Source: Candidatus Heimdallarchaeota archaeon B3_Heim
GTDB lineage: Archaea > Asgardarchaeota > Heimdallarchaeia > Hodarchaeales > Hodarchaeaceae
Direction of reading: 5' to 3'
Assembly: GCA_003144275.1 (NCBI GenBank)
Contig: NJBF01000004.1
Span: 60,001-92,000, forward strand
Length of the DNA: 32,000 bases
Shown: positions 3,136 through 21,613 of the stretch, one piece after another
Layout: every line of letters starts with the position of its first letter
Numbering within the stretch: position 1 is the first letter of the stretch
Translations under genes and position numbers: made by a program
Notes under the pieces: model-generated
Seen by the model: only the letters and a program-made list of their open reading frames with translations
What the model was told of the DNA's origin: nothing
The model's database searches: none

Positions 3136-3168
3136 ATTTTTCTTCTTTACCGATTTTTGGTGATTTAA

Positions 3169-4953
3169 TTGGATATTTCGTTCCTTAAAGAGTTGATTTC
3201 ATGTGCACGAGGGGAGATTCCATCTGATATTCTTATTCAAAACGGGACACTGGTCAATGTTATCACTCGAGAGACCTATTTGGCTGATGTCGCAATTTAT
3301 AAGAATAGAATAGCTAATGTGGCTGAACCAGGCATTCTTGATACAGCAAATAGTAATAATAGTATTAATGCCCACGGAAAATATATTTCTCCTGGATTTA
3401 TCGAATCTCATTTGCATATAGAAAGTACCATGCTTCCACCATCTGAATTTGCCAAGTTAGTTGTCCCCCATGGAACGACTACTGTGATAATGGATCCTCA
3501 TGAGATAGGCAATGCATTGGGAGAGGAAGGCCTCAAGCTTCTTCTTGATCTTGCAGAAAAACAGCCATTACGTCTATTAATTGAAATTCCTTCCTGTGTT
3601 CCTGCGGCCCCTGGACTTGAGACAACCGCTTTTACCATTGATGATCATGCGATTGCAGATATGATTCAGAACGAACCACGTTTCTATGGATTAGGCGAAG
3701 TGATGAATTATCCAGGCGTCTTAGCCAAAAATGATAGCGTTCTGAATAAGGTGCTTCTAGGGAAAAATCTTTCAGTAATTGATGGTCATAGTCCAGGTGT
3801 CTCAGGAAGAGATTTAGATGCTTACATCACAACAGGGATAAAATCTGACCATGAAAGTACAACAGGGGAAGAATTGCTTGAGAAATTAAGGAAGGGTATG
3901 ACTACCATGGCAAGAGAGGGATCCTTCACTAAAGACATTCACAATGTGTTAAAACTCGTTAAAGACAAAGATCTTGACTTACGAAATTGTACTTTATGCT
4001 CTGATGATCGAAATGTCATTGACCTAGTGGCTAATGGTCATATGAATTCTCATATTCGAATGGCTGTTACAGAAGGATTAGATGTTTTAACTGCAATTCA
4101 GATGGTAACGATTAATGCAGCCACATACCTAGATCTCCATAATGAAATTGGTTCGATTGCCCCAGGAAAAATTGCAGATGTTGTGCTTTTAGATGATTTA
4201 AAAGATATGCAAGTCTCAACAGTTATTTCCAACGGAAAAATAGTTTATGCAAACAAAGAAGTCTTGTGGGACTTTTCACTAACTTCTCTTCCTGATTGGG
4301 CTCAAGACACAATAAAACTCATGACTCCTCCCTCATCAGAACACTTGAGAGCAAAAACTTCGCTCAAAGATGGCATGTATTCCGTAAAGGTTATAGGAGT
4401 AATTCCGAATTCAGTTCTAACTGATCTAAAGCATATTAATTTAGAAGTAAGAGATGGATGGATTCGACCGAATCCAAAAGAAGATATACTGTCTATTTCT
4501 GTTATTGAAAGATATGGTGTAAACGGCAATATTTCTAATGCATTCATTCAAGGATTCAAGATAACGGTAGAACGATTTGCTATGGCTACGACTGTGGCAC
4601 ACGATAGTCACAATTTGTTAGTAGCTGGCACGGATCATGAAACTATGATAGAAGCTGTCAAACTACTACAAAACATAAAAGGTGGTTATGTCGTTATTGC
4701 TGATGAGAAGATTGGCAAAGTTTCCCTTCCTTTTGGCGGTTTAATGAGTACTCAATCTTATCAAACCCTACTCCATGAGTTAGAGGCAATTAATAAAATC
4801 TTCACGGATGGAGTATCAAGTTTTGATGAACCACTGATGGCCTTATCATTCATGGCACTACCAGTAATTCCACATTTAAAGATCACCGATAAAGGACTTG
4901 TAGATGTGGATAAATTCGCTTTTACAGAATTGATAGATGATCTAACTTTATAA
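3169..4953 (+). CDS. ade: adenine deaminase (amidohydrolase superfamily)
   Basis: PGFIESHLHIESTM (HxH metal motif), DPHEIGN, GEVMNYPGV, DGHSPG, SDHE, CSDDR, TTVAHDSHN, MSFMALPVIPHLKITDKGL-type C-terminus. TTG start with GGTGA SD. Confidence 0.95.
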   Translation: MDISFLKELISCARGEIPSDILIQNGTLVNVITRETYLADVAIYKNRIANVAEPGILDTANSNNSINAHGKYISPGFIESHLHIESTMLPPSEFAKLVVPHGTTTVIMDPHEIGNALGEEGLKLLLDLAEKQPLRLLIEIPSCVPAAPGLETTAFTIDDHAIADMIQNEPRFYGLGEVMNYPGVLAKNDSVLNKVLLGKNLSVIDGHSPGVSGRDLDAYITTGIKSDHESTTGEELLEKLRKGMTTMAREGSFTKDIHNVLKLVKDKDLDLRNCTLCSDDRNVIDLVANGHMNSHIRMAVTEGLDVLTAIQMVTINAATYLDLHNEIGSIAPGKIADVVLLDDLKDMQVSTVISNGKIVYANKEVLWDFSLTSLPDWAQDTIKLMTPPSSEHLRAKTSLKDGMYSVKVIGVIPNSVLTDLKHINLEVRDGWIRPNPKEDILSISVIERYGVNGNISNAFIQGFKITVERFAMATTVAHDSHNLLVAGTDHETMIEAVKLLQNIKGGYVVIADEKIGKVSLPFGGLMSTQSYQTLLHELEAINKIFTDGVSSFDEPLMALSFMALPVIPHLKITDKGLVDVDKFAFTELIDDLTL

Positions 4954-4982
4954 AATGCAAACCAATAACAACAATCCATTGG

Positions 4983-5372
4983 ATGCAGCTACATATGGAA
5001 ATTAAAGAGTATTGTATTTACTCGCTTGATTTCGCCTATGCACGGATTTCTCATAGCACTAATGTAGAAATTGATTTTAGAGGAGTTCTGAGCTATCATA
5101 CAAAAGATTTAGATTTGCTATCACAAGTTACACGAGGAAACCTAGATCTTGAATCTGTTAATGTTTTTCTTAATTTTCAAATTCAAAGACATATTGGTTT
5201 GATACTCAAAGATATAAAAGAGCACGAAATTGTTAATCAAAGGCCGATTATCGTCAACCGCATTAAAATGATTGTAAGAAACGAATTAAAAGAGATAGGT
5301 CTTGAATTTGTAAATTTCAAGCAGATTTCGTTATGGAGTCACGGAGCGACAGCAAGAGGAATTGCTGGATAG
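4983..5372 (+). CDS. small stand-alone SPFH/band-7-like domain protein
   Basis: NVEIDFRGVLSYHTKD...HIGLILKDIKEHEIVNQRPIIVNRIKMIVRNELKEIGLEFVNFKQISL follows the SPFH core pattern (V.+D.++.Y.+.D ... +G.+.+.E+...R..+...+...+...+...G+.+..+.+.++). No transmembrane segment or coiled coil. Confidence 0.5.
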   Translation: MQLHMEIKEYCIYSLDFAYARISHSTNVEIDFRGVLSYHTKDLDLLSQVTRGNLDLESVNVFLNFQIQRHIGLILKDIKEHEIVNQRPIIVNRIKMIVRNELKEIGLEFVNFKQISLWSHGATARGIAG

Positions 5373-7946: not shown

Positions 7947-9389
7947 CTACTCGGGGGTTTGATTTAAATCTTTCTCAAGTATCATTTCATGAATTGCCTT
8001 AGCTGCTTTTCGACCTGCACCCATGGCTAGTATTACAGTAGCTGCACCAGTTGCTACATCACCACCACAAAAGATTCTCTCGCGGGTTGTTGCACCTGTT
8101 TCTTCATCATGTACAAACGTTCCCCATTTAGTAGTGTCCAGTCCATCAGTTGTCATTGCAATTAATTGATTGGGTCGCTGACCTATAGCGATAATAACTG
8201 TATCAACAGGAAAAATAAATTCTGTTTCTGGAATTGGAATCGGTCGTCGACGACCTGAAGCATCTTTTTCTCCTAGATCCATTTTCATACATTTCAGACC
8301 TACAACGTTTCCTTTATTATCGCCAATTATTTCTAACGGTAATGTTAATTCTCCGATAACTACTCCCTCTTCTTTAGCGTGAATTATTTCCTCTAATCGT
8401 GCCGGAATTTCTCCTTCTGATCGTCGATAAATTATATCGACCTCTCGTGCTCCTAGTCGTAAAGAGGTTCTTGCACAGTCCATTGCAACATTACCTGCTC
8501 CGACAACGGCGACTTTTTCCCCAATTGTCACTGGCGTATCATAATCAGGGAACATGTAACCTTTCAAAAGATTTACTCTGGTGAGAAACTCATTTGCAGA
8601 AAATACACCATTAAGGTTTTCTCCAGGAACGTCCAGAAAATTCGGAGTCCCAGCACCAGAAGCAACATAGACAGCATTAAAGTTATACTTTTCTAAAAGC
8701 TCATCTACAGTTATAGTTCTCCCAATAAGCGCATCTTTTTCAAATGTCACACCTAATGCCATGACAGATTTAACTTCGTCATTTACAACAGATTTGGGCA
8801 TTCGGAACTCAGGAATTCCGTAGGTTAAGACACCACCGTATTCATGTAATGCTTCGTAGACAGTTACTTTATGACCTAATATGGCTAACTCTGCAGCACA
8901 TGTCAAACCTGAGGGTCCAGAACCAACAACAGCAACTTTACTACCTAATTCGCTAGCAATATTTCTATCCCCACTTTCTCCATAATCTGCAACAAATCTT
9001 TCTAGATTCCCAATAGAAATAGCATTGGGATGAATACAGAACTCTTGACATTGATTTTCTTGAGGACAAACTCGTCCAGTTATCGCTGGAAGGCTATTGG
9101 TGCACAAGATAATGTCTTTCGCCCCATTGATATCATTTTCAAACAGTTTTTGAATGAATTCTGGAATTTGGACACTAACAGGACAACCTTTCACACAGCG
9201 AGGTTTCTTACACTTCAAACAGCGAGAGGCTTCCTCCAGAGCTTCTTTATCTGTATAGCCTAAAGCAACCTCATTGAAATTACGAATTCGTTCACGAGAT
9301 TCTTGAACACTCATATGAGTTCGTTTTTTCTTGAGCTTTTGCTTGCGTTGTTGCCTATTTTTTTCCCTTTCTTCACTCATAATGTTCAA
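7947..9389 (-). CDS. NfnB/SudA-type NADPH-dependent oxidoreductase (GltD-like large subunit), copy 1
   Basis: CLKCKKPRCVKGCP and GRVCPQENQCQEFC Fe-S motifs, IGNLERF, GSGPSG (FAD), YGIPEFRMPK, GAGNVAMD and YRRS (NADP), GGDVATGAATVILAMGAG. Start is TTG 9389 or ATG 9380. Confidence 0.92.
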   Translation of the reverse strand: MNIMSEEREKNRQQRKQKLKKKRTHMSVQESRERIRNFNEVALGYTDKEALEEASRCLKCKKPRCVKGCPVSVQIPEFIQKLFENDINGAKDIILCTNSLPAITGRVCPQENQCQEFCIHPNAISIGNLERFVADYGESGDRNIASELGSKVAVVGSGPSGLTCAAELAILGHKVTVYEALHEYGGVLTYGIPEFRMPKSVVNDEVKSVMALGVTFEKDALIGRTITVDELLEKYNFNAVYVASGAGTPNFLDVPGENLNGVFSANEFLTRVNLLKGYMFPDYDTPVTIGEKVAVVGAGNVAMDCARTSLRLGAREVDIIYRRSEGEIPARLEEIIHAKEEGVVIGELTLPLEIIGDNKGNVVGLKCMKMDLGEKDASGRRRPIPIPETEFIFPVDTVIIAIGQRPNQLIAMTTDGLDTTKWGTFVHDEETGATTRERIFCGGDVATGAATVILAMGAGRKAAKAIHEMILEKDLNQTPE

Positions 9390-9395
9390 GACTCC

Positions 9396-11243
9396 TTAAT
9401 TTGTTCTTGCCATACGCTCAACGGCAATTCGTTCCTCATAACGGTATGCTCGTGATCGAAGAGTTAATTCTTCAAAATCTACTTTTAAACCATCAAAGTT
9501 AGGGCCATCTACACACGCAAATTTCACTTTACCTCCCACGGTAACTCGACATGCTCCACACATGCCAGTTCCATCAACCATTAATGGAGCTAAGGATACT
9601 ATAGTCGGGATATCGTGCTGTTTTGTGAAATCAACTACTGCTTTCATCATTGGGATAGGCCCAATAGCAACGACATGATCGATTTTTCTCCCTTCATCAA
9701 TGAATTTTCGCAATAAATCTAATCCATATCCATGGTGACCTAACGTCCCATCGTCTGTAGCAATATGTAGCTCATCACTGGCTGAAGTCATCTCATCTTG
9801 ACAGATCAGAAGTGATCCTGTTCGAGCAGAAATAATGCTTATCACATAATTACCTATATCTCTCATTGCTTTCGTTTTTGGCAATACAGGGGCAACACCA
9901 CAACCTCCTCCTAATACTACGACTGTTCCCCATTTTTCTATCTTCACAGGTTCACCAAGCGGTCCTAACAAATTCAAAATATGATCTCCCTCACTTAACC
10001 TTCCCATCAATTTCGTACTCTTTCCTATCTTCTGAAAAATAAGTGTAATAGTTCCAGCTTCTCTATCAAAATCAGCAACTGTTAGGGGAATTCTTTCACC
10101 ATGGTCAGTAACACGTAAAATGACAAATTGACCTGGTTGACATTTCTCTGCGATGCGTGGAGCACTAACGACCCACTTAATTATTTCTGAAGACAAGTCG
10201 ACCTTTTCAATAATTGTACTTTTCCCTTCAACAAACCTCTGGGCTAAGGACGGCTCCAATTTTTCTGGTATCTCTTTACTTGCTTCTTTTTCCAGATTTG
10301 TAAGATAGTGTGAGATCTGCATAGCCGCTGTTTGACCTTCTGCAGCATCAATTCCAACAATCGAATCTCCTCTTATTGCGCTTCCAGCAGCAAATACTCC
10401 CTGTAAGTTTGTATCTTGATTTGCGGAATTAATTATTATTTTTCCTTCAGGTGTGATAGCTAAACCAGCATTCATGAATAATTCTCTATTCTTAATTTTA
10501 CTACTGAGGATAACGATAATCTCAGTTGAAATTGATACTCTCTCACCTGTAGAACTCTTCAAATTCACTTTCTTGACTTTAAGATCTCCCTCAAATGAAA
10601 TAACTTCATGTCCAAAACGAATATTAACAAAACTTTCATTTAATCTTCTTAACAATGCAGGATGTGCATCAAACGCATCTCTAGCGGTAATCAAGCATAC
10701 TTGTGCTCCTAACGAATCATAATGGAGCGCATTTCGAACGGCCCATGAAGTATGACCAATAATGGCAACATTTTTCTCTTCATATTCCCCTTCAGGGGGA
10801 TTATTGTAATAAATTCCTTTAGAATGGTATTTTCGTTCTCCAGGGACATTTAGCTTTTTGGGATGTAAACCCGTGGCGATTAGAACTGTTTTACCGTGGT
10901 ATGCGATTTCTTCCGCAAAGAACTCTCCCCGTACTACAGTAGTATAGACCCGTTTGATCTTACCTTCTAGTTCTAGTCGACTGACACGTTCAGCATATCT
11001 GATCGTTGCATGATATTTTGCTTGACGGGCCATTTTATCCAATAATTCTTGGCGAGTAATACTGAAAAAGCCTGGATAACCATCAACCATCATACTACCT
11101 GCTGTAGCCGATCCTGATCGAGCTTCAAGAACAAGAACACTTCTTCCTAATTCTGCAGCTCGAATTGCACAAGAAATTCCAGCAGGGCCGCCTCCCACAC
11201 ATATGACATCCCATATCTTTGATTCCAACAGATTCTGCTCCAA
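9396..11243 (-). CDS. fusion protein: N-terminal thioredoxin-reductase-like FAD domain + C-terminal NfnA/SudB (FAD/NAD-binding, [2Fe-2S]) subunit
   Basis: N-terminal half: GGGPAG, ATG..PKKLNVPGE...KGIYY, TNLQGVFAAG. C-terminal half (about 9396-10222): CQPGQFVILR..GERIPLTVAD, GPLG, GGGCGVAP, AIGPIPMM, MVDGTGMCGACRV...CVDGP. One continuous 615-aa frame. Confidence 0.88.
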   Translation of the reverse strand: MEQNLLESKIWDVICVGGGPAGISCAIRAAELGRSVLVLEARSGSATAGSMMVDGYPGFFSITRQELLDKMARQAKYHATIRYAERVSRLELEGKIKRVYTTVVRGEFFAEEIAYHGKTVLIATGLHPKKLNVPGERKYHSKGIYYNNPPEGEYEEKNVAIIGHTSWAVRNALHYDSLGAQVCLITARDAFDAHPALLRRLNESFVNIRFGHEVISFEGDLKVKKVNLKSSTGERVSISTEIIVILSSKIKNRELFMNAGLAITPEGKIIINSANQDTNLQGVFAAGSAIRGDSIVGIDAAEGQTAAMQISHYLTNLEKEASKEIPEKLEPSLAQRFVEGKSTIIEKVDLSSEIIKWVVSAPRIAEKCQPGQFVILRVTDHGERIPLTVADFDREAGTITLIFQKIGKSTKLMGRLSEGDHILNLLGPLGEPVKIEKWGTVVVLGGGCGVAPVLPKTKAMRDIGNYVISIISARTGSLLICQDEMTSASDELHIATDDGTLGHHGYGLDLLRKFIDEGRKIDHVVAIGPIPMMKAVVDFTKQHDIPTIVSLAPLMVDGTGMCGACRVTVGGKVKFACVDGPNFDGLKVDFEELTLRSRAYRYEERIAVERMARTN

Positions 11244-11451: not shown

Positions 11452-12420
11452 TTGATGGCAGCAAACACAATGAATATAGATCCTTTTAGTACGAATTCTA
11501 CACTACTGGAGAAATCGACCGAGACTAGTCCATTTTCTTCGACCTTGATCGGATTCTTCTTGTGTTCCTTTGACACAACTTATGGCTTACAAATTCTTTT
11601 TTCTATTCCTGCAAAATTGAAAAAAAACTCCTCAGAACATGATATATTGAAGACACACTATATTTGGAAAGTTGAACATATCCCCATTCCCATTCGTATA
11701 GATCTAAAGATTTCTGAATTTATCTATTCAGCACTTCAATTGATTGGACCTAAATCACATGACGCAGAAGCTACCGTTGAAAAACCGATTTTCGGAATTG
11801 TTTTAAAAATATGGAAGGATGGAGAACATATTCCTCTTGAATTAATTGAACAATTCAGAGACGATCTCCAAATTAATCATTGGAATGACATTGAAATCCT
11901 GTATAAGCGACAAATCCTTGGTTTAAATCCTGCTAAAAGACGTAAATACATACAGCTTTCGGACAAAGTGGCTAAAATCGGAAAATTTCTTCAGACAACT
12001 TGGGAAGATCTAGGAAACAACGTATCCAATACCAAGATGTTCTTTAAAAAACAAAATTTGTCGATTCCCAAATCTTCTGTGTATTCAAGAAGTCAAAAAA
12101 CTCCTGGAAAGAGCTTTTTTAAGGATCCAGTCACAATGCGAGTTTTAGACTCTAAATATCAAAACGATGAGGTTTTAGTAATTTTAGTGAATCAAATGGA
12201 GACATTAGAAGATGTTAAAATCAGAGTGTCTAAAAAGACGGAATTTTTCAGTGAAAATTTATGGGAACAGGATCTTGAGGAATGGCCTACAAAGGAGGAT
12301 CTAATTTTGGAATTTCCACGATCATCAAAATTGGAAAGCTATTTGCTAAAAATAAGTAGCAAAAACCAAACAGTGGCAATTAAATCATTGAATATCGATT
12401 CTACAGATATTAAGTTATAA
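11452..12420 (+). CDS. longin/uDENN-like N-terminal domain protein with C-terminal beta-sandwich-like domain (paralog A)
   Basis: N-terminal IGFFLCSFDTTYGLQILFSIP resembles the hhhhhFD...GP.h...hP start of uDENN/longin (NPRL2/FLCN-type) domains. Visibly paralogous to 12501-13514. Exact start uncertain (TTG 11452, ATG 11455 or 11470). Confidence 0.5.
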   Translation: MMAANTMNIDPFSTNSTLLEKSTETSPFSSTLIGFFLCSFDTTYGLQILFSIPAKLKKNSSEHDILKTHYIWKVEHIPIPIRIDLKISEFIYSALQLIGPKSHDAEATVEKPIFGIVLKIWKDGEHIPLELIEQFRDDLQINHWNDIEILYKRQILGLNPAKRRKYIQLSDKVAKIGKFLQTTWEDLGNNVSNTKMFFKKQNLSIPKSSVYSRSQKTPGKSFFKDPVTMRVLDSKYQNDEVLVILVNQMETLEDVKIRVSKKTEFFSENLWEQDLEEWPTKEDLILEFPRSSKLESYLLKISSKNQTVAIKSLNIDSTDIKL

Positions 12421-12500
12421 AATAGCTACAGGAAAAGATTTAATTTTCAATTTTCTAATGTTTTGTTAATTAATTTGTATTTGAGTATCTATCCTATTAC

Positions 12501-13514
12501 TTGGAGTTCATTTTTTTGCCGAATGGGAAATCAAATCCTATTGATTCATATCACCTTCAAGTAAAAGATCGCTCTTTCGGATTCTTCATTTATTTTTATG
12601 ATGAATTACAAGGTCATTCACTACTGTTTGCCTATCCAAAGGCTCTCATGTCAAGTGAAAACGAAAGGGCCATCTTAGCTATTCACCCAGCGTGGTGGCA
12701 TCAAGATCAATTCCTTAAGTCTGAAAAATTCTCTACAATGGATCTTGAACTTAGTGGAGTGGTATATTCTGCCACTCTCTTCGAATGTGATACACAACGG
12801 TTGAAGAGACGGCCAGGCATGAAAGCAATGAAATGGCAAAAGGAGAGATTTATCCTCATCGTGAAAGCTCCTGAAAAAGTTTCTTTCATTGCTCAAGAAA
12901 TACTCCACGAGTTTCATTCCCAGATAAAGGAAAAATTCAGTAAACATTTGTGTTATCTCGTGCGATTTCAGCTTGAATCGACTAATAAGGCTGAGAACAA
13001 GGACTTTTTACCAGACAACGTTAAATTAGTGGAAGAGGGACTAGCTGAAATTTGTCAATCATTAACTCCTAACACACCAATTAGTAAACTTGAACCTTTA
13101 TTTCATATGGACAGAGAAAGGGAACCTGGCAAAAGGACTACTTTGAACTCTGTACCAAAAAAGAAATTAAGATTCGCGATTCCAAGAAGTAAAGATAGTA
13201 AAATTATTGGCCAGAAAACTTCAGATCATTCTCAAGAAAGTCCAAAATCGATCAAAATTCTATCAATAAGTAGAGGGGAAGATTTAGTAAAAATTTCAGT
13301 AAAAAATACAACTCCTTTCGATCTAAAAAATGTAGTTATCCGAGTCTATGAATCTCATGGTTTCGTTGGTAAAGACAAGAAAGTCAAGAAACTTTTGAAA
13401 TGGGCTCCAAATGAGGTTAGTGAGTTAGAATTTAAACCTGAATTAGATAAAGGGATACGTTACTTACTTAAAATTGAAGATGAAGAAGATAATCTAAAAA
13501 TAAAACGAATTTAA
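12501..13514 (+). CDS. longin/uDENN-like N-terminal domain protein with C-terminal beta-sandwich-like domain (paralog B)
   Basis: FGFFIYFYDELQGHSLLFAYP; shares IL..H..W...DL.+S..+YSA and the C-terminal domain with 11452-12420. TTG start. Confidence 0.5.
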   Translation: MEFIFLPNGKSNPIDSYHLQVKDRSFGFFIYFYDELQGHSLLFAYPKALMSSENERAILAIHPAWWHQDQFLKSEKFSTMDLELSGVVYSATLFECDTQRLKRRPGMKAMKWQKERFILIVKAPEKVSFIAQEILHEFHSQIKEKFSKHLCYLVRFQLESTNKAENKDFLPDNVKLVEEGLAEICQSLTPNTPISKLEPLFHMDREREPGKRTTLNSVPKKKLRFAIPRSKDSKIIGQKTSDHSQESPKSIKILSISRGEDLVKISVKNTTPFDLKNVVIRVYESHGFVGKDKKVKKLLKWAPNEVSELEFKPELDKGIRYLLKIEDEEDNLKIKRI

Positions 13515-13531
13515 AGGTAGGAAAATGCGCT

Positions 13532-13930
13532 TTGAACATAACAAAGGTTAAAGATTTAATGACAAAGGATTTAATAACTATTAGTGGGGATAAAAGTGTG
13601 ATATATGCTTCAGAATTAATGATAGAGAAAAATATTGGTTCTTTATTGGTTTATGAAGATTCCGAAGTGATAGGGATAATTACAGAACGGGATATTGTAA
13701 AAAAAATAATAACCGATTGTAAAGACCTATGTGAAGTTATGGCAATAGAAATTGCTACAAAAGATTTAATCACAATTGCGCCAAAGGATACAATTGAACA
13801 TGCATTAATCACGATGTACAGAAAAAATATTAAACGAATTCCCGTTAAAGATCCTATCTCTCATGAATTAGTAGGTATTATCACAACTCATGACATCATT
13901 GCCGCATTCAATACACTTGAACTAACTTAA
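13532..13930 (+). CDS. stand-alone CBS-pair (Bateman) domain protein
   Basis: VKDLMTKDLITI...ASELMIEKNIGSLLV...GIITERDI and IATKDLITIAP..TIEHALITM.RKNIKRIPV...VGIITTHDI. TTG start with AGGTAGG upstream. Confidence 0.93.
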   Translation: MNITKVKDLMTKDLITISGDKSVIYASELMIEKNIGSLLVYEDSEVIGIITERDIVKKIITDCKDLCEVMAIEIATKDLITIAPKDTIEHALITMYRKNIKRIPVKDPISHELVGIITTHDIIAAFNTLELT

Positions 13931-13939
13931 TTCCGATAA

Positions 13940-15673
13940 TCATTTTTTCACGTCTTCTGCAACAATAATTTTTGACATAATCTTACCATGTAGGTCATTA
14001 ATTGTAATCAGATATTCTTTTTCGCTTTTGTCAATGCGGGGACAATCAACTTCGTGTTCTTCACCAGGTGACCATTGAGGTACAGTTTTTTCGAACATTG
14101 TTGTTTCAAAGAAATCATGAACGTGAGAAATTCGGATTTTAACTTGATCAAGTTCTTTTTCGGAAACGTTAACTAAATTTACTCTTAGATAAACTGATTT
14201 TGGATAGATTGCTACATATTTTAATTCTAATATCTCTTTAGGAATCACAAAGCTTTCAGTAATTTCCTCTGTAGGTGGAAAAAGATCTTCATGAATAGCC
14301 ATTGCCGATCGTCGTCCAGCACCCATTGCAGAAATAACTGTTGCAGCTCCAGTTACAATATCCCCACCCGCGTATACAAACGGTTTACTAGTCCTTCCCA
14401 ATTCATCAGTCACAATATTTCCCCATTTATTCACCTCTAAATCTGGTGTAGTCATTGTAATCAAAGGATTGGCTTTATTTCCTATCGCAATGATAATCAG
14501 ATCCGTAGTGAGTTCAAAATAGTCCCCTTCTATCGGAACTGGTCTGGCACGGCCAGATTTATCTGGTTCCCCAAGTTCATATCGTTGGCAGCGAATAGAC
14601 TCAATTCTCCCTTTTTCGTCACCCATGATCTCTACTGGATTAGATAATAACTTAAATTGAATTCCTTCCTCTTCTGCATGGTGAACTTCTTCCAATCTCG
14701 CTGGCATTTGTTCCCTAGAACGACGATAGACGATATATACATTTTTAGCATCGAGTCTTAAAGCAGTTCTAGCTGAATCCATGGCGACGTTTCCTCCACC
14801 GACTACAACAACATTTTTGCCAGTAAGTAATGGTGTATTATAATCGGGATAAAGGTACGCCTTCATCAAATTCGAACGTGTCAAATATTCATTAGCAGAA
14901 TAAACCCCTTGCAAATTTTCTCCTGGAATATTCATAAACACAGGTAAGCCAGCTCCAACTCCAATATAAACTGCATCGTATCCATCCTCAGAAAATAATT
15001 CATCAATACTGCGAACCCTCCCAATAACTGAATCATAAACAAATTTGACACCAGAATTCTCCAAATTCTGAATTTCATACTGTACAACTGATTTAGGAAG
15101 TCTGAATTCAGGAATTCCATATACAAGAACGCCTCCACCAAGATGAAATGCTTCATAAACCGTTACTTCATACCCCTGTTGTATTAAATCGCCAGCCGTT
15201 GTTAGACCTGAGGGTCCACTCCCGATAATAGCTACTTTTTTCCCATTTTTCTTAACTCGCATGGGTTCAGGAATATGGCCACTAGATCTTTCATAGTCTG
15301 CAACAAACCGTTCGAGATTACCAATTCCTACAGATCTTCCTTTTTTACCCCTAACACAAACACCTTCACATTGAGATTCCTGAGGACAAACACGACCGCA
15401 AACAGCAGGGAGAACATTTCTTTCTTTAATTTTCCAAGCAGCCTCTAAAAATTTCCCTTCTTGTGCAAGAGATATAAATTCTGGTATTGGAACACGTACA
15501 GGACACCCTTCAACACATTTAGATTTCTTACAGTTCAAACATCGATTTGCTTCCTGAATTGCCATCTCTTCGGAATAGCCATAAGGAACTTCACGAAAAT
15601 TCTTTGCTCGTACCTGAGGAGGTTGGGTTGGCATTTCAGAAAAAACTATCTTCATTCGGTCTTTAGACTTCAT
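13940..15673 (-). CDS. NfnB/SudA-type NADPH-dependent oxidoreductase, copy 2, with about 110-aa C-terminal extension domain
   Basis: CLNCKKSKCVEGCP, GRVCPQESQCEGVC, GSGPSG, YGIPEFRLPK, GGGNVAMD, YRRS, GGDIVTGAATVISAMGAG. The core ends at ...AMAIHEDLF (about 14280), followed by an extra domain. Confidence 0.92.
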   Translation of the reverse strand: MKSKDRMKIVFSEMPTQPPQVRAKNFREVPYGYSEEMAIQEANRCLNCKKSKCVEGCPVRVPIPEFISLAQEGKFLEAAWKIKERNVLPAVCGRVCPQESQCEGVCVRGKKGRSVGIGNLERFVADYERSSGHIPEPMRVKKNGKKVAIIGSGPSGLTTAGDLIQQGYEVTVYEAFHLGGGVLVYGIPEFRLPKSVVQYEIQNLENSGVKFVYDSVIGRVRSIDELFSEDGYDAVYIGVGAGLPVFMNIPGENLQGVYSANEYLTRSNLMKAYLYPDYNTPLLTGKNVVVVGGGNVAMDSARTALRLDAKNVYIVYRRSREQMPARLEEVHHAEEEGIQFKLLSNPVEIMGDEKGRIESIRCQRYELGEPDKSGRARPVPIEGDYFELTTDLIIIAIGNKANPLITMTTPDLEVNKWGNIVTDELGRTSKPFVYAGGDIVTGAATVISAMGAGRRSAMAIHEDLFPPTEEITESFVIPKEILELKYVAIYPKSVYLRVNLVNVSEKELDQVKIRISHVHDFFETTMFEKTVPQWSPGEEHEVDCPRIDKSEKEYLITINDLHGKIMSKIIVAEDVKK

Positions 15674-16560
15674 GATGTTTCCTCTTCCCTGGATTTTTCT
15701 TGATATTTAGCTAAGGATCGGCATTCAGGAGAAAAATTCTGTAAACTAAGTGTTTCCTCACTAATATACAAGGTGTTACGTACATGTATTATTTCCTCCC
15801 AATCAATTTTATGGGCATTAAATTCTGGTCCATCAACGCATGCAAATTTTGTTTTACCATCATAAGATAAACGACAGCTTCCGCACATCCCTGTTCCATC
15901 CACCATAATTGTGGTAACTGTAGCATAGGTTGGAATAGCTCCTTTTTCTTTCGTTAGCTTTGAAACCTTGCTCATCATGACATTGCAGCCAATAACTTTG
16001 ATATGATCAATTTTTCGTTGTTGAGATTCAATCATGTGCTCAAGCACATCGTAAATATGTCCCCGTTCTCCTTTAGATCCATCAGTGGTAACAAGGATGA
16101 CTTCATCACTCACAGTTTTGAATTCCTCTTCATAATAAAGTAAATTCTCGTTTTTAGCCTCAATAATTGTTATTACGTGGTTTCCAAGTTCCTTGAGTCT
16201 TTTTGCTATTGGATAGGTCGCACCTACTCCATAACAACCCCCACTCACAACAACTGTTCCAAAATTCTCTAGATAAGCTGGTTCCCCTAATGGCCCTACA
16301 ATGCTATAAAATGAATCTCCTTCTTCCATAAATGCCATTTTGGAAGTAGATAATCCTAATTCCTGGACAATAAATGAAATCGTACCTTTTTCTTTATCCC
16401 AATCTATTAAGGTTAAAGGTATTTTTTCTGACCGTTCATCTACCATTACTAAGATAAATTGACCTGCTTTAGCTTTTCTTGCTATAGTAGGAACTGATAT
16501 ATCTAGCTTGTAAAAATTGGGTACAAATTCTTCCTTTTTTAGAATTTCAAATTTGGACAT
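15670..16560 (-). CDS. NfnA/SudB-type FAD/NAD-binding [2Fe-2S] subunit, copy 2
   Basis: AKAGQFILV...EKIPLTLID, VGPLG, TDGSKG, MVDGTGMCGSCRL...CVDGPEF. 4-bp ATGA overlap with the downstream NfnB. Confidence 0.92.
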   Translation of the reverse strand: MSKFEILKKEEFVPNFYKLDISVPTIARKAKAGQFILVMVDERSEKIPLTLIDWDKEKGTISFIVQELGLSTSKMAFMEEGDSFYSIVGPLGEPAYLENFGTVVVSGGCYGVGATYPIAKRLKELGNHVITIIEAKNENLLYYEEEFKTVSDEVILVTTDGSKGERGHIYDVLEHMIESQQRKIDHIKVIGCNVMMSKVSKLTKEKGAIPTYATVTTIMVDGTGMCGSCRLSYDGKTKFACVDGPEFNAHKIDWEEIIHVRNTLYISEETLSLQNFSPECRSLAKYQEKSREEETS

Positions 16561-18157
16561 CTAATACACCTTTTCCTTTTGACTGGTTGATAGCACGCTT
16601 TGAAGTTATATACAGCCTAAACTCTTCAACTTTGTCAGCTATGGGAACTCCCATATACTCAAGCTGTTGTTTTGATACCTTAGGTATTTCTAGTGGTTCG
16701 GCATTCCTTATTTCATCCTGTAAATTTTCAATTGATTCATGATTAAATCCATCTAATCCCATTGATTGAGCTAGGCGGCTTACAATGATCCAGCTAGGAA
16801 GTGCCTCTCCTGGTGGTTCAACTGCTTTATTTATTGCGTATTTCATGTATTCTTCTCCCGATTTTGTTCCGTCTTCTTCAGCGAACATTGTCGTTGGAAG
16901 AACGACCTCAGCAGTATCAGAAGAATTCGATTGGTATATATCCTGTAGAATCAGGAATTCTAGACCATCAAATTCAGAGAAAACATTCGAATTAAAGGTA
17001 GAAAAGATTGCTTTTACTCCTTGAGACTGTAAATTCTTGATATCTTCTTCGATAAATACAACGGGGTTGGTACTGACTCTTTGTGCAAATTTCAAAAGAA
17101 GATAAACTGCTTCGTCAGTTAAAGATGGAGATAATATAATTCCGATTTCCTCAGGTTTGTAGCCTTTCAACTTATCAGCCGTGTGTGTAATTGCTTCATC
17201 CCAAGGAACTGGATACTGCTCTTCTTTGATTACTTTACGTTTGACAGTAGGGTATTTAAGTCGGTCACGACCATTTACAAGAGCTGGAATACAAAATCGT
17301 CCTTTTACACAATATTCACGACGAGCTGACAATTCATATGGAGGATGAACGTTTACTACCTTATCCCACTTTACGTCAATTACCATTTGACATCCGTGTG
17401 AACATAGATTACATGTTGTTGTAACAGATTTATCGGGAGTTCCAAACCATGTCGAACCACGGGCAATGAGAGCTCCTGTCGGACATACATCAATACAATG
17501 ACCACAAAATACACACCCGCTTTCGAGGTGAGATACTTCTAAAATAGTTCCTACTTTGGTATCATGGCCACGTTTAGTTAGAGCAATAGCACTATATCCC
17601 AATACATCTTGACAGGCTCGAATACAACGAGCACATAGGATACAAAGGTTATAATCTCTTACAAGAAATGGATCATCACGTTCCAACGGAAGATTTTTAT
17701 AAAGCATTGGATACCGTATATCTTTGACCCGTAAATACTCAGAAATTTCTCGAATTTCGCATATTTCCTTGTTACTACAAGTAAAACATCCAATAACTCG
17801 TCCTGCTTTATATTCCCCATGGCGTACTTTTTCACATTCATCGTGTTCCTTACATATTATACAATAACTAGGATGTTCAGCAAGGATTAATTGGAAAACA
17901 TTTCGACGAACAGTTTGTAAATCTGGTGTTGCAGTTCGAACAACCATTCCTTCTCTGGCAGGTAATGTACAGGAATTGGGGTAAGTTCGGTTTCCCTCTA
18001 CATCAATAATACATAATCGGCATGCACCAAATGAAGGTAAATCTGGTCTTGCGCAGAGAGTAGGGATAAAAATTCCAGCTTTTGTAGCTACTTCAAGTAC
18101 AGTCTCTCCTTCCTCAAACACAACACGCCTCCCATTAATATTCATCCACTTGGTCAT
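16547..18157 (-). CDS. NuoG/HydA/FdhA-like multi-Fe-S subunit with internally truncated molybdopterin-fold remnant (no evident catalytic site)
   Basis: [2Fe-2S] IPTLC...GACRLC...SC; His-ligated H..YC..C...C plus a second C..C....C; 2x[4Fe-4S] CILCARCIRAC / CVFCGHCIDVCPTGAL; TTCNLCSHGC...CVKGR. Start reassigned to ATG at 18157 (TAATG overlap with the upstream stop, GGTGG SD) rather than 18241. Confidence 0.85.
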   Translation of the reverse strand: MTKWMNINGRRVVFEEGETVLEVATKAGIFIPTLCARPDLPSFGACRLCIIDVEGNRTYPNSCTLPAREGMVVRTATPDLQTVRRNVFQLILAEHPSYCIICKEHDECEKVRHGEYKAGRVIGCFTCSNKEICEIREISEYLRVKDIRYPMLYKNLPLERDDPFLVRDYNLCILCARCIRACQDVLGYSAIALTKRGHDTKVGTILEVSHLESGCVFCGHCIDVCPTGALIARGSTWFGTPDKSVTTTCNLCSHGCQMVIDVKWDKVVNVHPPYELSARREYCVKGRFCIPALVNGRDRLKYPTVKRKVIKEEQYPVPWDEAITHTADKLKGYKPEEIGIILSPSLTDEAVYLLLKFAQRVSTNPVVFIEEDIKNLQSQGVKAIFSTFNSNVFSEFDGLEFLILQDIYQSNSSDTAEVVLPTTMFAEEDGTKSGEEYMKYAINKAVEPPGEALPSWIIVSRLAQSMGLDGFNHESIENLQDEIRNAEPLEIPKVSKQQLEYMGVPIADKVEEFRLYITSKRAINQSKGKGVLDVQI

Positions 18158-19992
18158 TATGGTACCACCTTTTGGGGCCTGTCTTGTTTGAAGATAGCTG
18201 TTTTTGGACAACTTGAATGACAGATGCCACATGTAACACACACTGCAGTGTCAATGAAATGCACTTGCCCCTTTTCTCCAGTAATAGCACTAACGGGACA
18301 ATTACGAGCGCAAATTGTACACCCATTGCAAAGACTTTCATCAATGACATAATTAATGAGATCTTGACAGTCTTTCGCCAAACAGCGCTTTTCAAAAATA
18401 TGAGATTGATACTCATTACGGAAATACTTAAGAGTCGTTAATACTGGATTTGGGGCAGTTTGGCCTAAAGCACATAAAGAACCCATCTTAACAGTATAAG
18501 CAAGTTCCTCCAAAAGCATAAGATCCTTGTCTTCCCCTTTTCCAGTAATAATTCGCTCCAAAATTAATAGCATGGCTCTGGTTCCAATCCTGCATGGAAT
18601 ACACTTACCACATGATTCAGCTTGAGTGAAAGTCAAAAAATAATGAGCAAGTTTGACCATACAGTTAGTTTCATCAAGTACTATCATTCCCCCTGAGCCC
18701 ATAATACTTCCCGAAGCTGCCATGGTTTCATAATCAACTGGTGAATCCAAATGACTTGGGGGTAAACATCCCCCAGAAGGGCCACCAGTTTGAACAGCTT
18801 TGAATTCTCTATCATCAAGAATTCCACCCCCAATTTCGTATACAATCTCCCTCAAAGGAGTTCCCATGGGAACTTCAATCAAACCTAGATTTTTAACTTT
18901 CCCAGTTAAAGAAAAGATAGCCGTTCCAGTAGCATTCTCAACACCTATTCCATGGAACTTTTCCCACCCATTTTTAAAGATCCACGATGCTGATGCCCAT
19001 GTTTTAACATTGTTAATATTTGTAGGTTTACCCCAAAGTCCAGAAGTGGCAGGAAAGGGCGGCCTAGTACGAGGATTCCCACGATGTCCTTCTATAGAAG
19101 CCATTAATGCGGTTTCTTCCCCACAAACAAACGCTCCAGCACCTTCATGAACCGATATATCAAGAGAAAGACTAGAATTTAGAATATTGTCACCTAGAAA
19201 CCCTCTTTCCTTTGCTGTGACAAGAGCACGGCTAAAACGCTTGATTGCAAGAGGATACTCGGCTCGACAATATATAATTCCATGGGAGGCACCAATAGCA
19301 TATGCACCGATAATCATACCTTCTAATACACTATGGGGATCAGCCTCAAGTAAGGAGCGATCCATAAACGCCCCAGGATCTCCCTCATCAGCATTACAAA
19401 TGATATATTTTTCACTACCAGGAGCATCATGACAAAATTGCCATTTCAGACCTGTAGAAAAACCTGCTCCTCCTCGTCCTCTTAACCCTGAATCTGTGAT
19501 TATCTGAATTATTTCTTCTGGTTTTTTTTCTAGGGCACTCCTTAATCCTGAATATCCCCCAGTATTCATATAAGCATCAATTTCTTCTGGATTAATATGG
19601 CCACAATTACCCAAGATCATTCTAGTTTGTTTACTGTAAAAATCGATATTTTTATAATTTCCAATGCGTTTATTTAGTTTAGGATCCATGAAAAAGAGAT
19701 CTTCGACAAGAACATCGTTTTTAAGATGCGATTCAACAATTTGTTTGACATTAGGAGATTTAACCTGAGCGTACATAACACCTTCTGGCTCAATGATAAC
19801 AATTGGCCCTTGTGCACAAAATCCATGGCAGCCTGTGAAATCTACCTTTATTTTTTCCTGCAAATTGAAGTTTTTAAGCTGTTCTTCAAATTCCTCACTA
19901 ATTTCATCCGATTTAGATGATACACACCCGGTTCCCTTGCAAATTAGAACAGTCTTCTGATAATATTTTTGTAATGATTCCACCTGTGTCAT
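18157..19992 (-). CDS. NuoF/HydB (BfuB)-like FMN/NADH-binding subunit
   Basis: N-terminal thioredoxin-like [2Fe-2S] domain (ICKGTGC...GCHGFCAQGP), SGLRGRGGAGF, CNADEGDPGAFMDR, FVCGEETAL, GGPSGG, ESCGKCIPCRIG, H..EKRC...C, and C-terminal 2x[4Fe-4S] CNGCTICARNCP / CVTCGICHSSCP. Confidence 0.95.
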   Translation of the reverse strand: MTQVESLQKYYQKTVLICKGTGCVSSKSDEISEEFEEQLKNFNLQEKIKVDFTGCHGFCAQGPIVIIEPEGVMYAQVKSPNVKQIVESHLKNDVLVEDLFFMDPKLNKRIGNYKNIDFYSKQTRMILGNCGHINPEEIDAYMNTGGYSGLRSALEKKPEEIIQIITDSGLRGRGGAGFSTGLKWQFCHDAPGSEKYIICNADEGDPGAFMDRSLLEADPHSVLEGMIIGAYAIGASHGIIYCRAEYPLAIKRFSRALVTAKERGFLGDNILNSSLSLDISVHEGAGAFVCGEETALMASIEGHRGNPRTRPPFPATSGLWGKPTNINNVKTWASASWIFKNGWEKFHGIGVENATGTAIFSLTGKVKNLGLIEVPMGTPLREIVYEIGGGILDDREFKAVQTGGPSGGCLPPSHLDSPVDYETMAASGSIMGSGGMIVLDETNCMVKLAHYFLTFTQAESCGKCIPCRIGTRAMLLILERIITGKGEDKDLMLLEELAYTVKMGSLCALGQTAPNPVLTTLKYFRNEYQSHIFEKRCLAKDCQDLINYVIDESLCNGCTICARNCPVSAITGEKGQVHFIDTAVCVTCGICHSSCPKTAIFKQDRPQKVVP

Positions 19993-20486
19993 TCTGGTTC
20001 CTCCTTCGATTTTTCCTTCTTAATCATCCGATTGATAAGTTGGAGTAACTTTGAAGGCTTTACCTGACCGTAGATTTCGTTATCTATTTGTACAACAGGA
20101 GATAGTGCACAACACCCTAAACACGCAACACGTTCAAAACTAAATAGACCATCTTCAGTTGTTTCACCAGGTTCTATTCCTAACTTTGTCCTCACTGCTT
20201 CTGCAAGAATATTTCCACCTTTTACGAAGCAGGCAGTACCAAGACATACCGAGATAATATGTTTTCCCGGTTTAATAAATTTAAACTGCTGATAAAAAGA
20301 AGCGACCCCATAAACTTCATTTGGTGATAATTCAAGATGTTCACTAATCTTTATCAGATTTTCCTTGGATAAATATCCATATTCTTTCTGTACATCCTGT
20401 AATATTGGAATCAGGTGTTCTTGCTTCTTCCCCCTCAAATTTAAGATCTCGTGAATTGTCGAATCTATAGCCTCTGCTGCAACCAC
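19989..20486 (-). CDS. NuoE/HydC (BfuC)-like [2Fe-2S] subunit
   Basis: LIPILQDVQ..YGYL, YGVASFY, VCLGTACFVKG, ACLGCCALSP. GTG start with GGAG SD; ATGA overlap with the NuoF-like gene. Confidence 0.95.
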   Translation of the reverse strand: MVAAEAIDSTIHEILNLRGKKQEHLIPILQDVQKEYGYLSKENLIKISEHLELSPNEVYGVASFYQQFKFIKPGKHIISVCLGTACFVKGGNILAEAVRTKLGIEPGETTEDGLFSFERVACLGCCALSPVVQIDNEIYGQVKPSKLLQLINRMIKKEKSKEEPE

Positions 20487-20496
20487 TTATGAGCGT

Positions 20497-20564
20497 CTCC
20501 AATATCGTTTTTTTGATGTTAATAACCACTGATAATATATTTATTCCGTAGTTTTTATAATAAA
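20497..20564 (-). promoter_or_regulatory. candidate promoter/RBS region of the nuoEFG-like/nfnAB operon
   Basis: On the minus strand, TTTATTATAAAAA (20552-20564) and AAATATAT boxes lie upstream of the GTG start, with a GGAG SD at 20497-20500 and a GTT-N3-AAC palindrome at 20518-20526. Confidence 0.35.
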
Positions 20565-20701
20565 TCGTGTGTAATCTCTCTGAAAGCAACGGGAACCAAT
20601 GTTGTGCGTGACGTATAAATAATTTATTCTGATCTGACCAAGAAAACAATAGTAAATTAATGAAGACTGAAAATTCTCATTCTATCAACTTAATCAGTTG
20701 A

Positions 20702-21613
20702 TTATTCCTCACTACTCATCTCAATCAGTAATTCTGCGAAAATTTCCATTTCTTTTAATAATTCTTGAATTGATTCTGCTGGATCAGCTGGTCCCTGCTC
20801 ATCCATCATCATAAGAACGGTTAACACATAACTAAAAATATGAACTTTCAACTTCTTTACATCTGAGCTAGCTGAGAAAAATGCGGATTCAGATGTCAAA
20901 AAATTCTCACGCAGAACATTGCATGCGAAAATATATTCACGAAGGTCTTCACGAAGCTGAATACCAGTAGCAAATCCTTCGATATTATGTGTAATGACAT
21001 TCCCATTAACATCGGTAATTATAATCTTGGAATTCAATTTCGATAAGTATTCTTGTGCACTTTCAACGCTTTTCTTCAATTCTTCAAAATCTGCGATCAA
21101 AAGTTGCTTTATAAAATCACTGAGTTCTTCTTGTCTATAAACAGAGGTTAAAAATTCACGGGGAGAATATTTAACTATAAATGGAAGCTGTTTGGCTTTT
21201 TTGAGATTTTTTTCAAGAGTAGCTTCTACATAATCTTCTGTATCATATTTATGATAGAAGATTTTCACACGAGGATCTCCGTCTTCTTCTTTAATTGCCG
21301 AATAAACATTATCAAAGTACTCGTTTGCCAAGTCAAAATTCTCAGGGTTATGAAGATCAAGAACAAAAATCAAAATTGATGTATTTGCTAATAACTTTGG
21401 TGTTTCTAAATAGCTTTCACGATATTTTTCTTGGCCTCCAAAATCCCATAATGAAACCTGAATCCCAAGATAATTATGGCTTTTGACCTCATACATAACC
21501 GTAGGCCCAAGATCTTTGACCTCTAGAGGAGTCATTCCTCCGAAAGTTGTCGAGTAGATAGATGTTTTTCCGCAACCACTAAGACCAACTAGTGAGATTT
21601 TCATACTTCTCAT
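20702..21613 (-). CDS. Rag/Gtr-like small GTPase with C-terminal roadblock/longin-like domain
   Basis: G1 GLSGCGKT, G2 GPTV, G3 WDFGGQ, G4 HKYD, G5 TSVY. About 125-aa C-terminal alpha/beta domain (…KIIITDVNGNVITH…). Confidence 0.8.
   Translation of the reverse strand: MRSMKISLVGLSGCGKTSIYSTTFGGMTPLEVKDLGPTVMYEVKSHNYLGIQVSLWDFGGQEKYRESYLETPKLLANTSILIFVLDLHNPENFDLANEYFDNVYSAIKEEDGDPRVKIFYHKYDTEDYVEATLEKNLKKAKQLPFIVKYSPREFLTSVYRQEELSDFIKQLLIADFEELKKSVESAQEYLSKLNSKIIITDVNGNVITHNIEGFATGIQLREDLREYIFACNVLRENFLTSESAFFSASSDVKKLKVHIFSYVLTVLMMMDEQGPADPAESIQELLKEMEIFAELLIEMSSEE

Follow-up and report, generated by a model that had tools for sequence, protein, structure and literature searches.

The closest described counterparts of the genes considered here are heterodimers of longin proteins, one example being the NPRL2-NPRL3 pair of GATOR1 (Npr2-Npr3 in yeast), a GTPase-activating protein (GAP) for RagA/Gtr1. 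In NPRL2-NPRL3, as well as in FLCN-FNIP and SMCR8-C9orf72, a conserved basic loop is found in one subunit only (PMC8213707; PMC7464330); FLCN Arg164 and NPRL2 Arg78 sit in analogous longin loops, and the NPRL2 arginine finger acts on RagA (PMC7464330). NPRL2-like and FLCN/SMCR8-type longins have also been reported in Asgard archaea, where they were proposed to be GAPs for Asgard Rag or Arf GTPases (PMC12290439; bioRxiv 10.1101/2020.10.19.343400). In Asgard genomes, small GTPases and longin/roadblock proteins each number in the dozens, and their genes are generally outside operons (PMC10933270; bioRxiv 10.1101/2020.10.19.343400); most of the NPRL2-/FLCN-like longin genes lie outside conserved neighbourhoods (PMC12290439; PMC10933270; bioRxiv 10.1101/2020.10.19.343400). 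Because of this dispersal, Asgard GTPases cannot be matched to their regulators by gene order. Here we describe a stretch of 32,000 nucleotides (the window) from Candidatus Heimdallarchaeota archaeon B3_Heim (contig NJBF01000004.1, positions 60,001 to 92,000), of which positions 11452-13930 hold three same-strand genes: A, B and a CBS gene. Proteins almost identical to those of the window are labelled Hodarchaeales in public data. The module that we propose around them offers one concrete, testable pairing of a RagA-like GTPase with an arginine-loop longin, a CBS sensor and a metabolic enzyme, and this pairing holds in at least two named Asgard classes, the Hodarchaeales-type Heimdallarchaeia and the Freyarchaeia/Jordarchaeia.

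Gene A (11470-12420, + strand; open reading frame, ORF, from 11452) probably starts at ATG 11470 and gene B (12516-13514, +; ORF from 12501) at TTG 12516, as judged from ortholog alignments. The B stop is spaced 17 base pairs (bp) from the start of a gene for a CBS-pair protein of 132 amino acids (aa; 13532-13930, +). A co-oriented pair of paralogs with a CBS gene 17 bp further on is what an earlier, sequence-only reading of the window had described, and the ORFs and coordinates agree with it. We see about an even chance that these genes belong to a conserved module with a longin dimer as the regulator of a RagA-like GTPase, here called Rag1, the dimer being tied to a redox enzyme and a CBS sensor. 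The parts would be the A/B family, whose members join a longin domain to a C-terminal beta-sandwich (bS), Rag1, a CBS pair (sometimes fused) and a flavin/iron-sulfur oxidoreductase ending in bS, with a fifth part outside the window's genus, a ~390-aa protein likewise ending in bS. Through their longin domains the proteins would dimerise, A with B here and the single-copy protein of other lineages with itself, and the resulting platform would hold Rag1 and set its nucleotide state. The GAP-type arginine finger would come from the conserved basic loop of B, with A in the degenerate role that NPRL3 has beside NPRL2 and FNIP beside FLCN. Shared bS domains would anchor this platform to the redox enzyme, an adenine-nucleotide input would enter through the CBS pair, and the GTPase switch would report the redox and energy state. 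All of the binding, the direction of the regulation (GAP or guanine nucleotide exchange factor, GEF) and the sensed ligand are what we infer. The sequence-only reading had likewise proposed a heterodimeric Rag regulator with an energy input, and it is partly supported: the longin folds, the CBS linkage and a link to a Rag-like GTPase stand, whereas the architecture of the proteins, the partner GTPase and the role of the Nfn operons had to be revised.

Linkage to a RagA-like GTPase and a CBS pair

Rag1 (20702-21613, -; 303 aa) matches Pfam Gtr1_RagA with 81 bits, against a cut-off of 22, and its G motifs are intact, namely the P-loop GLSGCGKT, DFGGQE (DxxGQ) and HKYD (HKxD). Among solved structures it comes closest to a RagA-like Lokiarchaeota GTPase, to human RagA and to yeast Gtr1. 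By its Gtr1_RagA domain and G motifs, Rag1 is predicted to be a Rag/Gtr GTPase, with a putative roadblock-type domain in its C-terminal 110 residues. It lies on the same strand as, and 215 bp upstream of, the NuoE-like gene that begins a NuoEFG-NfnAB operon (window 20486-20702), and may therefore be co-transcribed with that operon here.

Evidence for the pairing of Rag1 with the A/B family comes from other lineages. GTDB families are coded here as f1, f2 and so on, f1 being the family code of the window's genus, and L and G numbers denote the loci and genomes of the comparison set. When 12 loci from other families were compared with all window proteins, f13, f14, f15, f16, f17 and f32 were found to hold a single-copy gene ~25% identical to B, with a Rag1 ortholog (43-52% identity) within a few kilobases (kb) of it. 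Outside the window's class, the longin and Rag1 genes are 1.4-8.8 kb apart in 18 genomes (f13, f14, f15, f17, f21 and f32): 2.6-4.4 kb in 15 genomes of f13, f14, f15 and f17, 8.8 kb in G114, 7.2 kb in G397 and 1.4 kb in G282 (f21). In f16 the two genes are on separate contigs, and this family is counted among the seven linked ones via its CBS fusion. Within the window's genus the distance is 2.0 kb in eight genomes and 7.2-7.5 kb in seven, the window included. The linkage recurs in several families with differing local gene orders, gene fusion included, and the neighbourhood is conserved beyond the genus, a check that the sequence-only reading had named. That reading had connected A and B with the Rag-like GTPases of the window in general; proximity and distribution uphold the connection for one gene, Rag1, and not for the cluster at 25-29 kb as a group.

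The distribution of the two genes across genomes is in line with this linkage. A search of 400 species genomes of the phylum with the B-family profile found the longin family in 18/21 genomes of f1, 5/5 of f13, 6/6 of f14, 3/3 of f15, 1/2 of f16, 2/2 of f17, 1/1 of f18, 121/135 of f20, 3/4 of f21 and 1/89 of the remaining families (one f32 genome). Rag1 orthologs, taken at E < 1e-40 and nearly always one per genome, were found in 18/21 (f1), 5/5 (f13), 6/6 (f14), 3/3 (f15), 2/2 (f16), 2/2 (f17), 1/1 (f18), 110/135 (f20), 4/4 (f21) and 1/89 (remaining families). Neither the longin family nor Rag1 was found in any other family of the 400 genomes, the rest of the window's own class included, and the genus members G069 and G070, which have no A/B gene, have no Rag1 either. 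Among 189 genomes at least 90% complete, the bS domain has the distribution of the longin family plus one extra family, f9. The longin family, Rag1 and bS share nearly the same patchy distribution across genomes. One positive family belongs to the Freyarchaeia/Jordarchaeia, and its G116 locus is 100% identical to chromosome CP147778.1. At the thresholds used, a single bS gene without A/B or Rag1 is seen in G002, G003 and G004 (f9) and in G069 and G070, where it is a 508-aa ORF.

The third gene is a CBS pair (Bateman module), which matches Pfam CBS in two repeats with an E value of 1.9e-27 and 95.8 bits, against a cut-off of 24. A CBS gene is adjacent to the longin gene in L001-L006, L019, L029 and L030, and in three genomes the longin and bS domains are fused to four CBS repeats in one protein of 631-639 aa by ORF call (L020:8677-10572, -; L027:2508-4397, +; L028:9496-11415, +). 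Judging by its length, the 641-aa representative P0085 is probably the same fusion form. Adjacency or fusion is kept down to ~25% identity, so the CBS linkage seen earlier in the window alone extends well beyond it. In having a CBS pair, stand-alone or fused, joined to a regulatory complex, the proposed module is reminiscent of AMPK gamma-type energy sensors, although the partner here is a longin protein rather than a kinase and ligand binding is putative.

A shared beta-sandwich domain and the tagged redox enzyme

A link to redox metabolism is suggested by the bS domain. The GltD/NfnB-type gene on the right flank (13940-15673, -) encodes a C-terminal extension (aa ~461-577; 13943-14293, -) whose last ~115 residues match A with 37% identity over 60 residues (E 8e-7) and B with E 1e-4. 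The B-family profile matches this tail at window 13964-14230 (E 8e-9), a profile of the domain itself matches it with E 5e-32, and over the whole genome the B-family profile matches B, A and the NfnB tail only. Aligned, 18 bS sequences have a clear consensus in which N, W and E positions never vary; no Pfam model covers the domain, which is new. A homology search with the NfnB C-terminal region returned NfnB orthologs only, because such a search depends on shared words; the range of bS was taken from whole-genome profile searches. Exactly three bS genes were found in each of five genomes searched exhaustively, and three is the most common number among 189 genomes at least 90% complete. In the window's genome the three are A, B and the right-hand NfnB; elsewhere bS is on the longin protein, on an FrhB-like protein encoded beside Rag1 and on the ~390-aa protein encoded just after Rag1. 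Found fused to longin, FrhB-like, NfnB and putative arrestin-like proteins, bS is therefore a candidate tethering module.

The identity of the tagged enzyme varies. An FrhB-family flavin/iron-sulfur protein is encoded directly beside the Rag1 ortholog in the f13-f17 and f32 loci. Relatives within the window's genus have an FrhB-like tagged enzyme of 492-495 aa, co-directional with A, B and the CBS gene at gaps of 17-110 bp, whereas in genomes of the window's type the tag is on an NfnB of 581-588 aa that ends the NuoEFG-NfnAB operon. In either form, the tagged enzyme stays between the CBS gene and Rag1 within the genus. The NfnB form looks derived, because the other families all have the FrhB form. 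Tag and position were kept while the enzyme changed; that the block sits beside an Nfn operon is therefore a feature of the system rather than a chance insertion. The sequence-only reading had described the block as inserted between two Nfn operons, but the right-hand NfnB carries the bS of A and B, and the insertion is not a neutral one. No bS domain is found in the left-hand Nfn-like operon, whose linkage to A/B is confined to the genus.

These observations could also be read without any GTPase. In the main alternative, A, B and the CBS protein would be accessory, assembly or regulatory subunits of the bS-tagged oxidoreductase, bS would be an oligomerisation tag of the redox complex, and the proximity of Rag1 would reflect a different relationship or none. 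The occurrence of bS on both the right-hand NfnB and FrhB-like proteins speaks for this, as do the close co-directional spacing of A, B, CBS and FrhB-like genes in relatives of the genus and the divergent intergenic region that A shares with the left-hand Nfn-like operon; CBS pairs are, moreover, direct regulators of many enzymes. On the other side, Rag1 orthologs track the longin family and adjoin the bS-tagged enzyme in every family examined, f20 included, and the left-hand Nfn operon, without bS, is unlinked outside the genus. Additionally, longin and roadblock domains are known chiefly as platforms for small GTPases (PMC3747258; PMC10933270). We regard an oxidoreductase function that excludes the GTPase as unlikely; subunits of an oxidoreductase could at the same time regulate a GTPase, and the two readings are not mutually exclusive.

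The ~390-aa protein after the Rag1 ortholog (L019:3370-4542, L020:4762-5922, L029:3136-4269, L030:4700-5914 and L025:16420-17592, all on the - strand) ends in a bS domain detected with E 1e-7 to 4e-7 and has no Pfam hit. Language-model features place it near arrestin/Vps26-like clusters, with scores of 0.84-0.88 that are no more than a lead. The window's genome lacks it, A, B and NfnB accounting for the bS genes there.

Longin folds, paralogy and the basic loop

The AlphaFold2 models of the two proteins, built with alignments of 27 and 30 orthologs (mean predicted local distance difference test, pLDDT, 67 and 70), are alike. In each, an N-terminal longin core extended by helices is joined by a disordered linker to a seven-stranded bS of ~95 residues. 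The longin part is predicted at aa ~31-195 of A (11542-12036) and ~24-200 of B (12570-13100), and bS at aa ~226-316 of A (12127-12399) and ~250-337 of B (13248-13511). Both cores have the topology beta-beta-alpha-beta-beta-beta-alpha (in A, strands 32-41 and 45-52, helix 54-68, strands 81-84, 90-97 and 113-121, then helices; B is equivalent), which agrees with the longin fold, a five-stranded sheet in the order beta-beta-alpha-beta-beta-beta-alpha(-alpha). Each model was aligned to ~48,000 PDB representatives. The top match of A is 6ulg_N, from a FLCN-FNIP2-Rag-Ragulator entry (Z 10.6), followed by 8fw5_B of GATOR1 and 8adl_S of the SEA complex (Z 10.2 each), a Lokiarchaeota roadblock-longin protein (Z 9.8), C9orf72-SMCR8 (Z 9.4), Lst4 (Z 9.2) and 6nzd_H (Z 9.2); that of B is 8fw5_B (Z 10.0), and many solved longins score Z 8-10.6 with the two models. 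Chain lengths and residue numbering suggest that 8fw5_B is NPRL2 and 6nzd_H is FLCN. A shape search of the ESM Atlas returned, after the family's own clusters, NPR2 (best cluster with a TM score of 0.64 by target over 137 residues), an archaeal partial-Folliculin cluster, C9orf72 and DENND11. A longin fold for the N-terminal domains of A and B is well supported by these models.

The sequence-only reading had spoken of longin/uDENN-like genes. The predicted folds, nearest to NPRL2/Npr2, FLCN-FNIP2 and C9orf72, sustain the first half of that term and not the second: neither the models nor a Pfam scan of A and B contain a DENN, dDENN or uDENN-tripartite module, and DENND1A matches over its longin part only (Z 8.2). 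An NPRL-type C-lobe is also missing from A and B, whose C-terminus is the seven-stranded sandwich with generic Ig/Fn3-like matches. Foldseek searches of the PDB with the whole models returned mostly generic beta-sandwich matches of GH2/GH3 enzymes, and a lead to the lipid-binding GTPase chaperones PDE-delta, UNC119 and RhoGDI was dropped, as these matched no better than other Ig-like folds.

A longin followed by a sandwich also recalls the layout of mu-adaptin or delta-COP, and A and B could accordingly be adaptor- or coat-like trafficking subunits that link cargo or membranes. AP2 mu (2xa7_M) does align over both domains, but with a root-mean-square deviation of 16-18 A, and the longins of AP sigma and COPI zeta/delta score Z 7.7-8.9; the arrestin/Vps26-like lead for the ~390-aa module member, drawn from language-model features only, points the same way. 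The sandwich of ~95 residues and seven strands is, however, far from a mu-homology domain of ~270 residues, and it matches generic Ig/Fn3-like domains best. The module showed no further genes of coat type, its partners are redox enzymes and a CBS protein, and we consider a trafficking role very improbable.

A and B are full-length paralogs, with 24% identity over ~318 residues (BLASTP, E 5e-9) and, between their ortholog families, a profile-profile match of 99.1% probability over 281 columns (E 1.6e-18). Both translations contain the blocks that had first suggested their kinship: a hydrophobic run ending in (F/Y)D...G...hP, IL..H..W and DL...S...YSA. A longin-only profile hits just 82 clusters among 1.84 billion representative proteins, the full-length hits being nearly all 300-357 aa and one 641 aa, and the family is Asgard-only. 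Outside f1 the gene is single-copy, and the A-family profile finds only that same gene; A has no ortholog outside the genus, and B is the copy most similar to the single-copy gene of the other Asgard lineages. The maximum-likelihood tree gives full support to an A clade, whose stem is very long (2.43 substitutions per site), and places B in a separate clade with a stem of 1.42 substitutions per site. A duplication at the base of the genus, followed by fast divergence of A, would explain this most simply; its dating depends mainly on the distribution, because the tree is unrooted.

This history leaves room for a second alternative, in which A and B do not pair, each acting alone or as a homodimer like the single-copy ancestor, and A has acquired a new function that has nothing to do with B. 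The single-copy state of all other lineages and the long stem of A would fit such a scenario. Likewise, the spacer of 95 bp between A and B holds an AT-rich, TATA-like sequence, and B may therefore have its own promoter. Nevertheless, A and B are neighbours in the same orientation wherever both were found on one contig within the genus, both have kept bS, and the retention of the basic loop in one copy only is the pattern of NPRL2-NPRL3, FLCN-FNIP and SMCR8-C9orf72 (PMC8213707; PMC7464330). An unpaired A and B thus appear quite unlikely.

The loop in question, R-x-K-x-R-x-G-M (B residues R100-M107; 12798-12821, +), lies between longin strands 4 and 5, which span residues 87-97 and 114-124 in the B model. 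Its extended form, S-x-R-x-K-x-R-(A/S/P)-G-(M/L), is found in the B family and in 12/12 single-copy relatives, and R100, K102, R104 and G106 are invariant in 27 B orthologs; across 24 members of the whole family, the longin domain is invariant at G38, H62 and W65 (B numbering). In the A family (0/6 with the loop) this region is shorter, unconserved and arginine-free, the basic positions being deleted. With the loop kept in B and lost in A, B looks like a catalytic-type subunit and A like its degenerate partner, by analogy with the eukaryotic pairs. The location of the loop can be compared with that of Asgard proteins that are positive for Pfam Folliculin, which, when aligned, show an invariant D-E-x-x-G-P before strand 2 and an invariant A-R-G-x-x-R between two hydrophobic strand-like segments after the first helix. 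The FLCN-type A-R-G and the basic loop of B would occupy the same topological place, as judged by topology and not by superposition. The hairpin of strands 3 and 4, also considered as the place of the arginine finger, was ruled out by these Folliculin-positive sequences, which put it between strands 4 and 5.

Relation to GATOR1, FLCN and other known systems

Several results weigh against a GAP-like longin platform acting on Rag1. Sec22, VAMP7, TRAPP and AP sigma longins reach Z 7.7-9.6, about 1-2 Z units off the GAP-type longins, and because general longins score almost as high, the fold alone does not single out the GAP class; the preference of the models for GAP-type longins is only a lean. 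The loop is modelled with low confidence (pLDDT ~53), and its equivalence to the arginine-finger loop rests on topology. Regarding sequence, A, B and 22 relatives have no match to Folliculin (PF11704) or NPR2 (PF06218) in Pfam even at E 10, genome-wide scans with the Folliculin and NPR2 models do not touch the A/B genes, and the A, B and longin-only profiles find nothing meaningful among PDB sequences. Sequence-level membership of the NPR2 or Folliculin families, whose profiles the earlier reading had suggested for comparison, is thus not seen for A or B. Compared as profiles, the A/B family and the Asgard FLCN-type longins align over 19 columns around FDE..G with a probability of 2.5%. In place of the 'GP' motif reported directly before strand 2 of GAP longins (PMC12290439), B has G-H and A has G-L. 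All 24 family sequences keep the glycine, which is followed by H in B and in single-copy relatives (by Q in a single f20 sequence), by L in A and never by P; the short hhalign match puts the family's G-H onto the G-P of the Asgard FLCN-type longins. Finally, linkage is loose in f20, where the distance between the longin and Rag1 genes, depending on the genus, is 10.7-12.7 kb or 20-64 kb and reaches ~790 kb in one closed genome; within 10 kb of the f20 longin gene neither a CBS gene nor Rag1 was seen. Related genomes are not independent samples.

The proposed module resembles GATOR1 in being built on a pair of paralogous longin proteins of which only B keeps the conserved loop arginines, in the top or near-top rank of NPRL2-type chains among the structural matches (8fw5_B, Z 10.0-10.2; 8adl_S, Z 9.6-10.2) and in the RagA/Gtr1-like nature of the linked GTPase. 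It differs in that A and B have no detectable sequence homology to GATOR1 subunits, no NPRL2-type C-terminal lobe and no DEPDC5 equivalent, and have instead a novel beta-sandwich C-terminus with CBS and redox partners; the GAP role is predicted only. Similarly, A and B share with FLCN-FNIP and SMCR8-C9orf72 the longin fold (6ulg_N, Z 10.6; 6nzd_H, Z 9.2; 7o2w_A, Z 9.4; Lst4, Z 9.2), the glycine just before strand 2 and a basic loop in one subunit only, but they have no DENN domain and no Pfam Folliculin match, and read G-H or G-L in place of G-P.

The FLCN/SMCR8-type longins of Asgard archaea share with the A/B family the FDE..G(P) strand-loop-strand motif and one or more arginines between strands 4 and 5. 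They nevertheless form a separate family at other loci, alignable over those 19 columns, in which the loop motif is A-R-G-x-x-R rather than the R-x-K-x-R-x-G of B. Such proteins, of 375-449 aa, pass the Pfam Folliculin cut-off, carry the invariant DE..GP and ARG..R, and were seen at L047, L049 and L053-L056 in the window's genus and at L052 in G116. Seven of ten complete genomes of the genus encode one, and none was found in the window's genome at E 1e-5. Another system to be compared is MglA-MglB, in which a bacterial small GTPase is regulated by a dimeric GAP platform of the roadblock/longin superfamily encoded nearby; MglB, however, is a roadblock homodimer without an arginine finger, and CBS or redox-enzyme partners are missing there. 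In the open-access literature text, no description was found of the bS domain, the CBS fusion, the family architecture or the linkage to Rag1, FrhB or NfnB.

The module is a candidate forerunner of eukaryotic Rag-GTPase nutrient sensing. In its fullest form, the proposal would have a GAP-like longin platform, a CBS sensor, an arrestin-like protein and an FrhB-like or Nfn enzyme joined via bS, with the Rag switch as a prokaryotic forerunner of the GATOR1/FLCN-Rag systems and an independent split into two subunits in Hodarchaeales, a combination that we hold to be doubtful. If biochemistry bears out the module, Rag-type nutrient or energy sensing would predate eukaryotes, with redox and energy metabolism as its ancestral input, and the split into catalytic and non-catalytic paralogs would prove to evolve repeatedly.

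Neighbouring genes

On each flank, the window encodes an NfnB/GltD-like protein (Fer4_20 plus Pyr_redox_2) together with an NfnA-like protein (an FAD/NAD domain plus a DHODB-type 2Fe-2S domain). The minus-strand nfnAB-type operons noted previously on both sides are consistent with this domain composition, from which alone the flanking genes are assigned as putative NfnAB-type oxidoreductases. The left flank comprises a GltD/NfnB-type gene (7947-9389, -; Fer4_20 and Pyr_redox_2) and an NfnA-type gene (9396-11243, -) for a 615-aa protein with a thioredoxin-reductase-like Pyr_redox_2 domain N-terminally fused to DHODB_Fe-S_bind C-terminally; this protein is kept beside A inside the window's genus only. 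On the right flank, the GltD/NfnB-type gene described above is preceded in its operon by an NfnA-like gene (15670-16560, -), a NuoG-like gene (16547-18241, -), a NuoF-like gene (18157-19992, -) and, as the first gene, a NuoE-like gene (19989-20486, -), and the bS-tagged redox operon apart from the bS tail, from the NfnB-like catalytic part to the NuoE-like gene, spans 14294-20486 (-).

Besides Rag1, three further Gtr1_RagA-family GTPases are encoded at 25010-26014, 26025-26969 (+; a weak match) and 27822-28754. In an alignment with the neighbouring Rag-like proteins, the P-loop of the second reads GLSHSGKD and the DxxGQ motif is missing, features consistent with a dead GTPase. The longin-gelsolin gene of the window (26991-27806) was considered as a relative of A and B and ruled out, comparison with the A/B family showing no relation. 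The sequencing runs that cover part of the stretch are DNA metagenomes from cold-seep and marine sediment, with no RNA run listed.

Among the loci of other families, the f20 longin and bS gene is always followed by a conserved gene for a protein of ~160 aa beginning ...IIIRNYR.SDY... (L022:8783-9271, -; L023:8975-9469, -; L024:10610-11086, +; L026:8945-9415, -), and HdrA-like and MvhD-like genes are close by in two f20 loci. A large protein with Peptidase_C25 (gingipain-family) and CarboxypepD_reg matches is encoded between the FrhB-like and longin genes at L019:7359-9380 (-) and L029:6830-9445 (-), the L029 locus also having IFT52-GIFT/DUF4350 matches, and in L021 an 849-aa ORF (2439-4988, -) occupies the position of the Peptidase_C25 protein.

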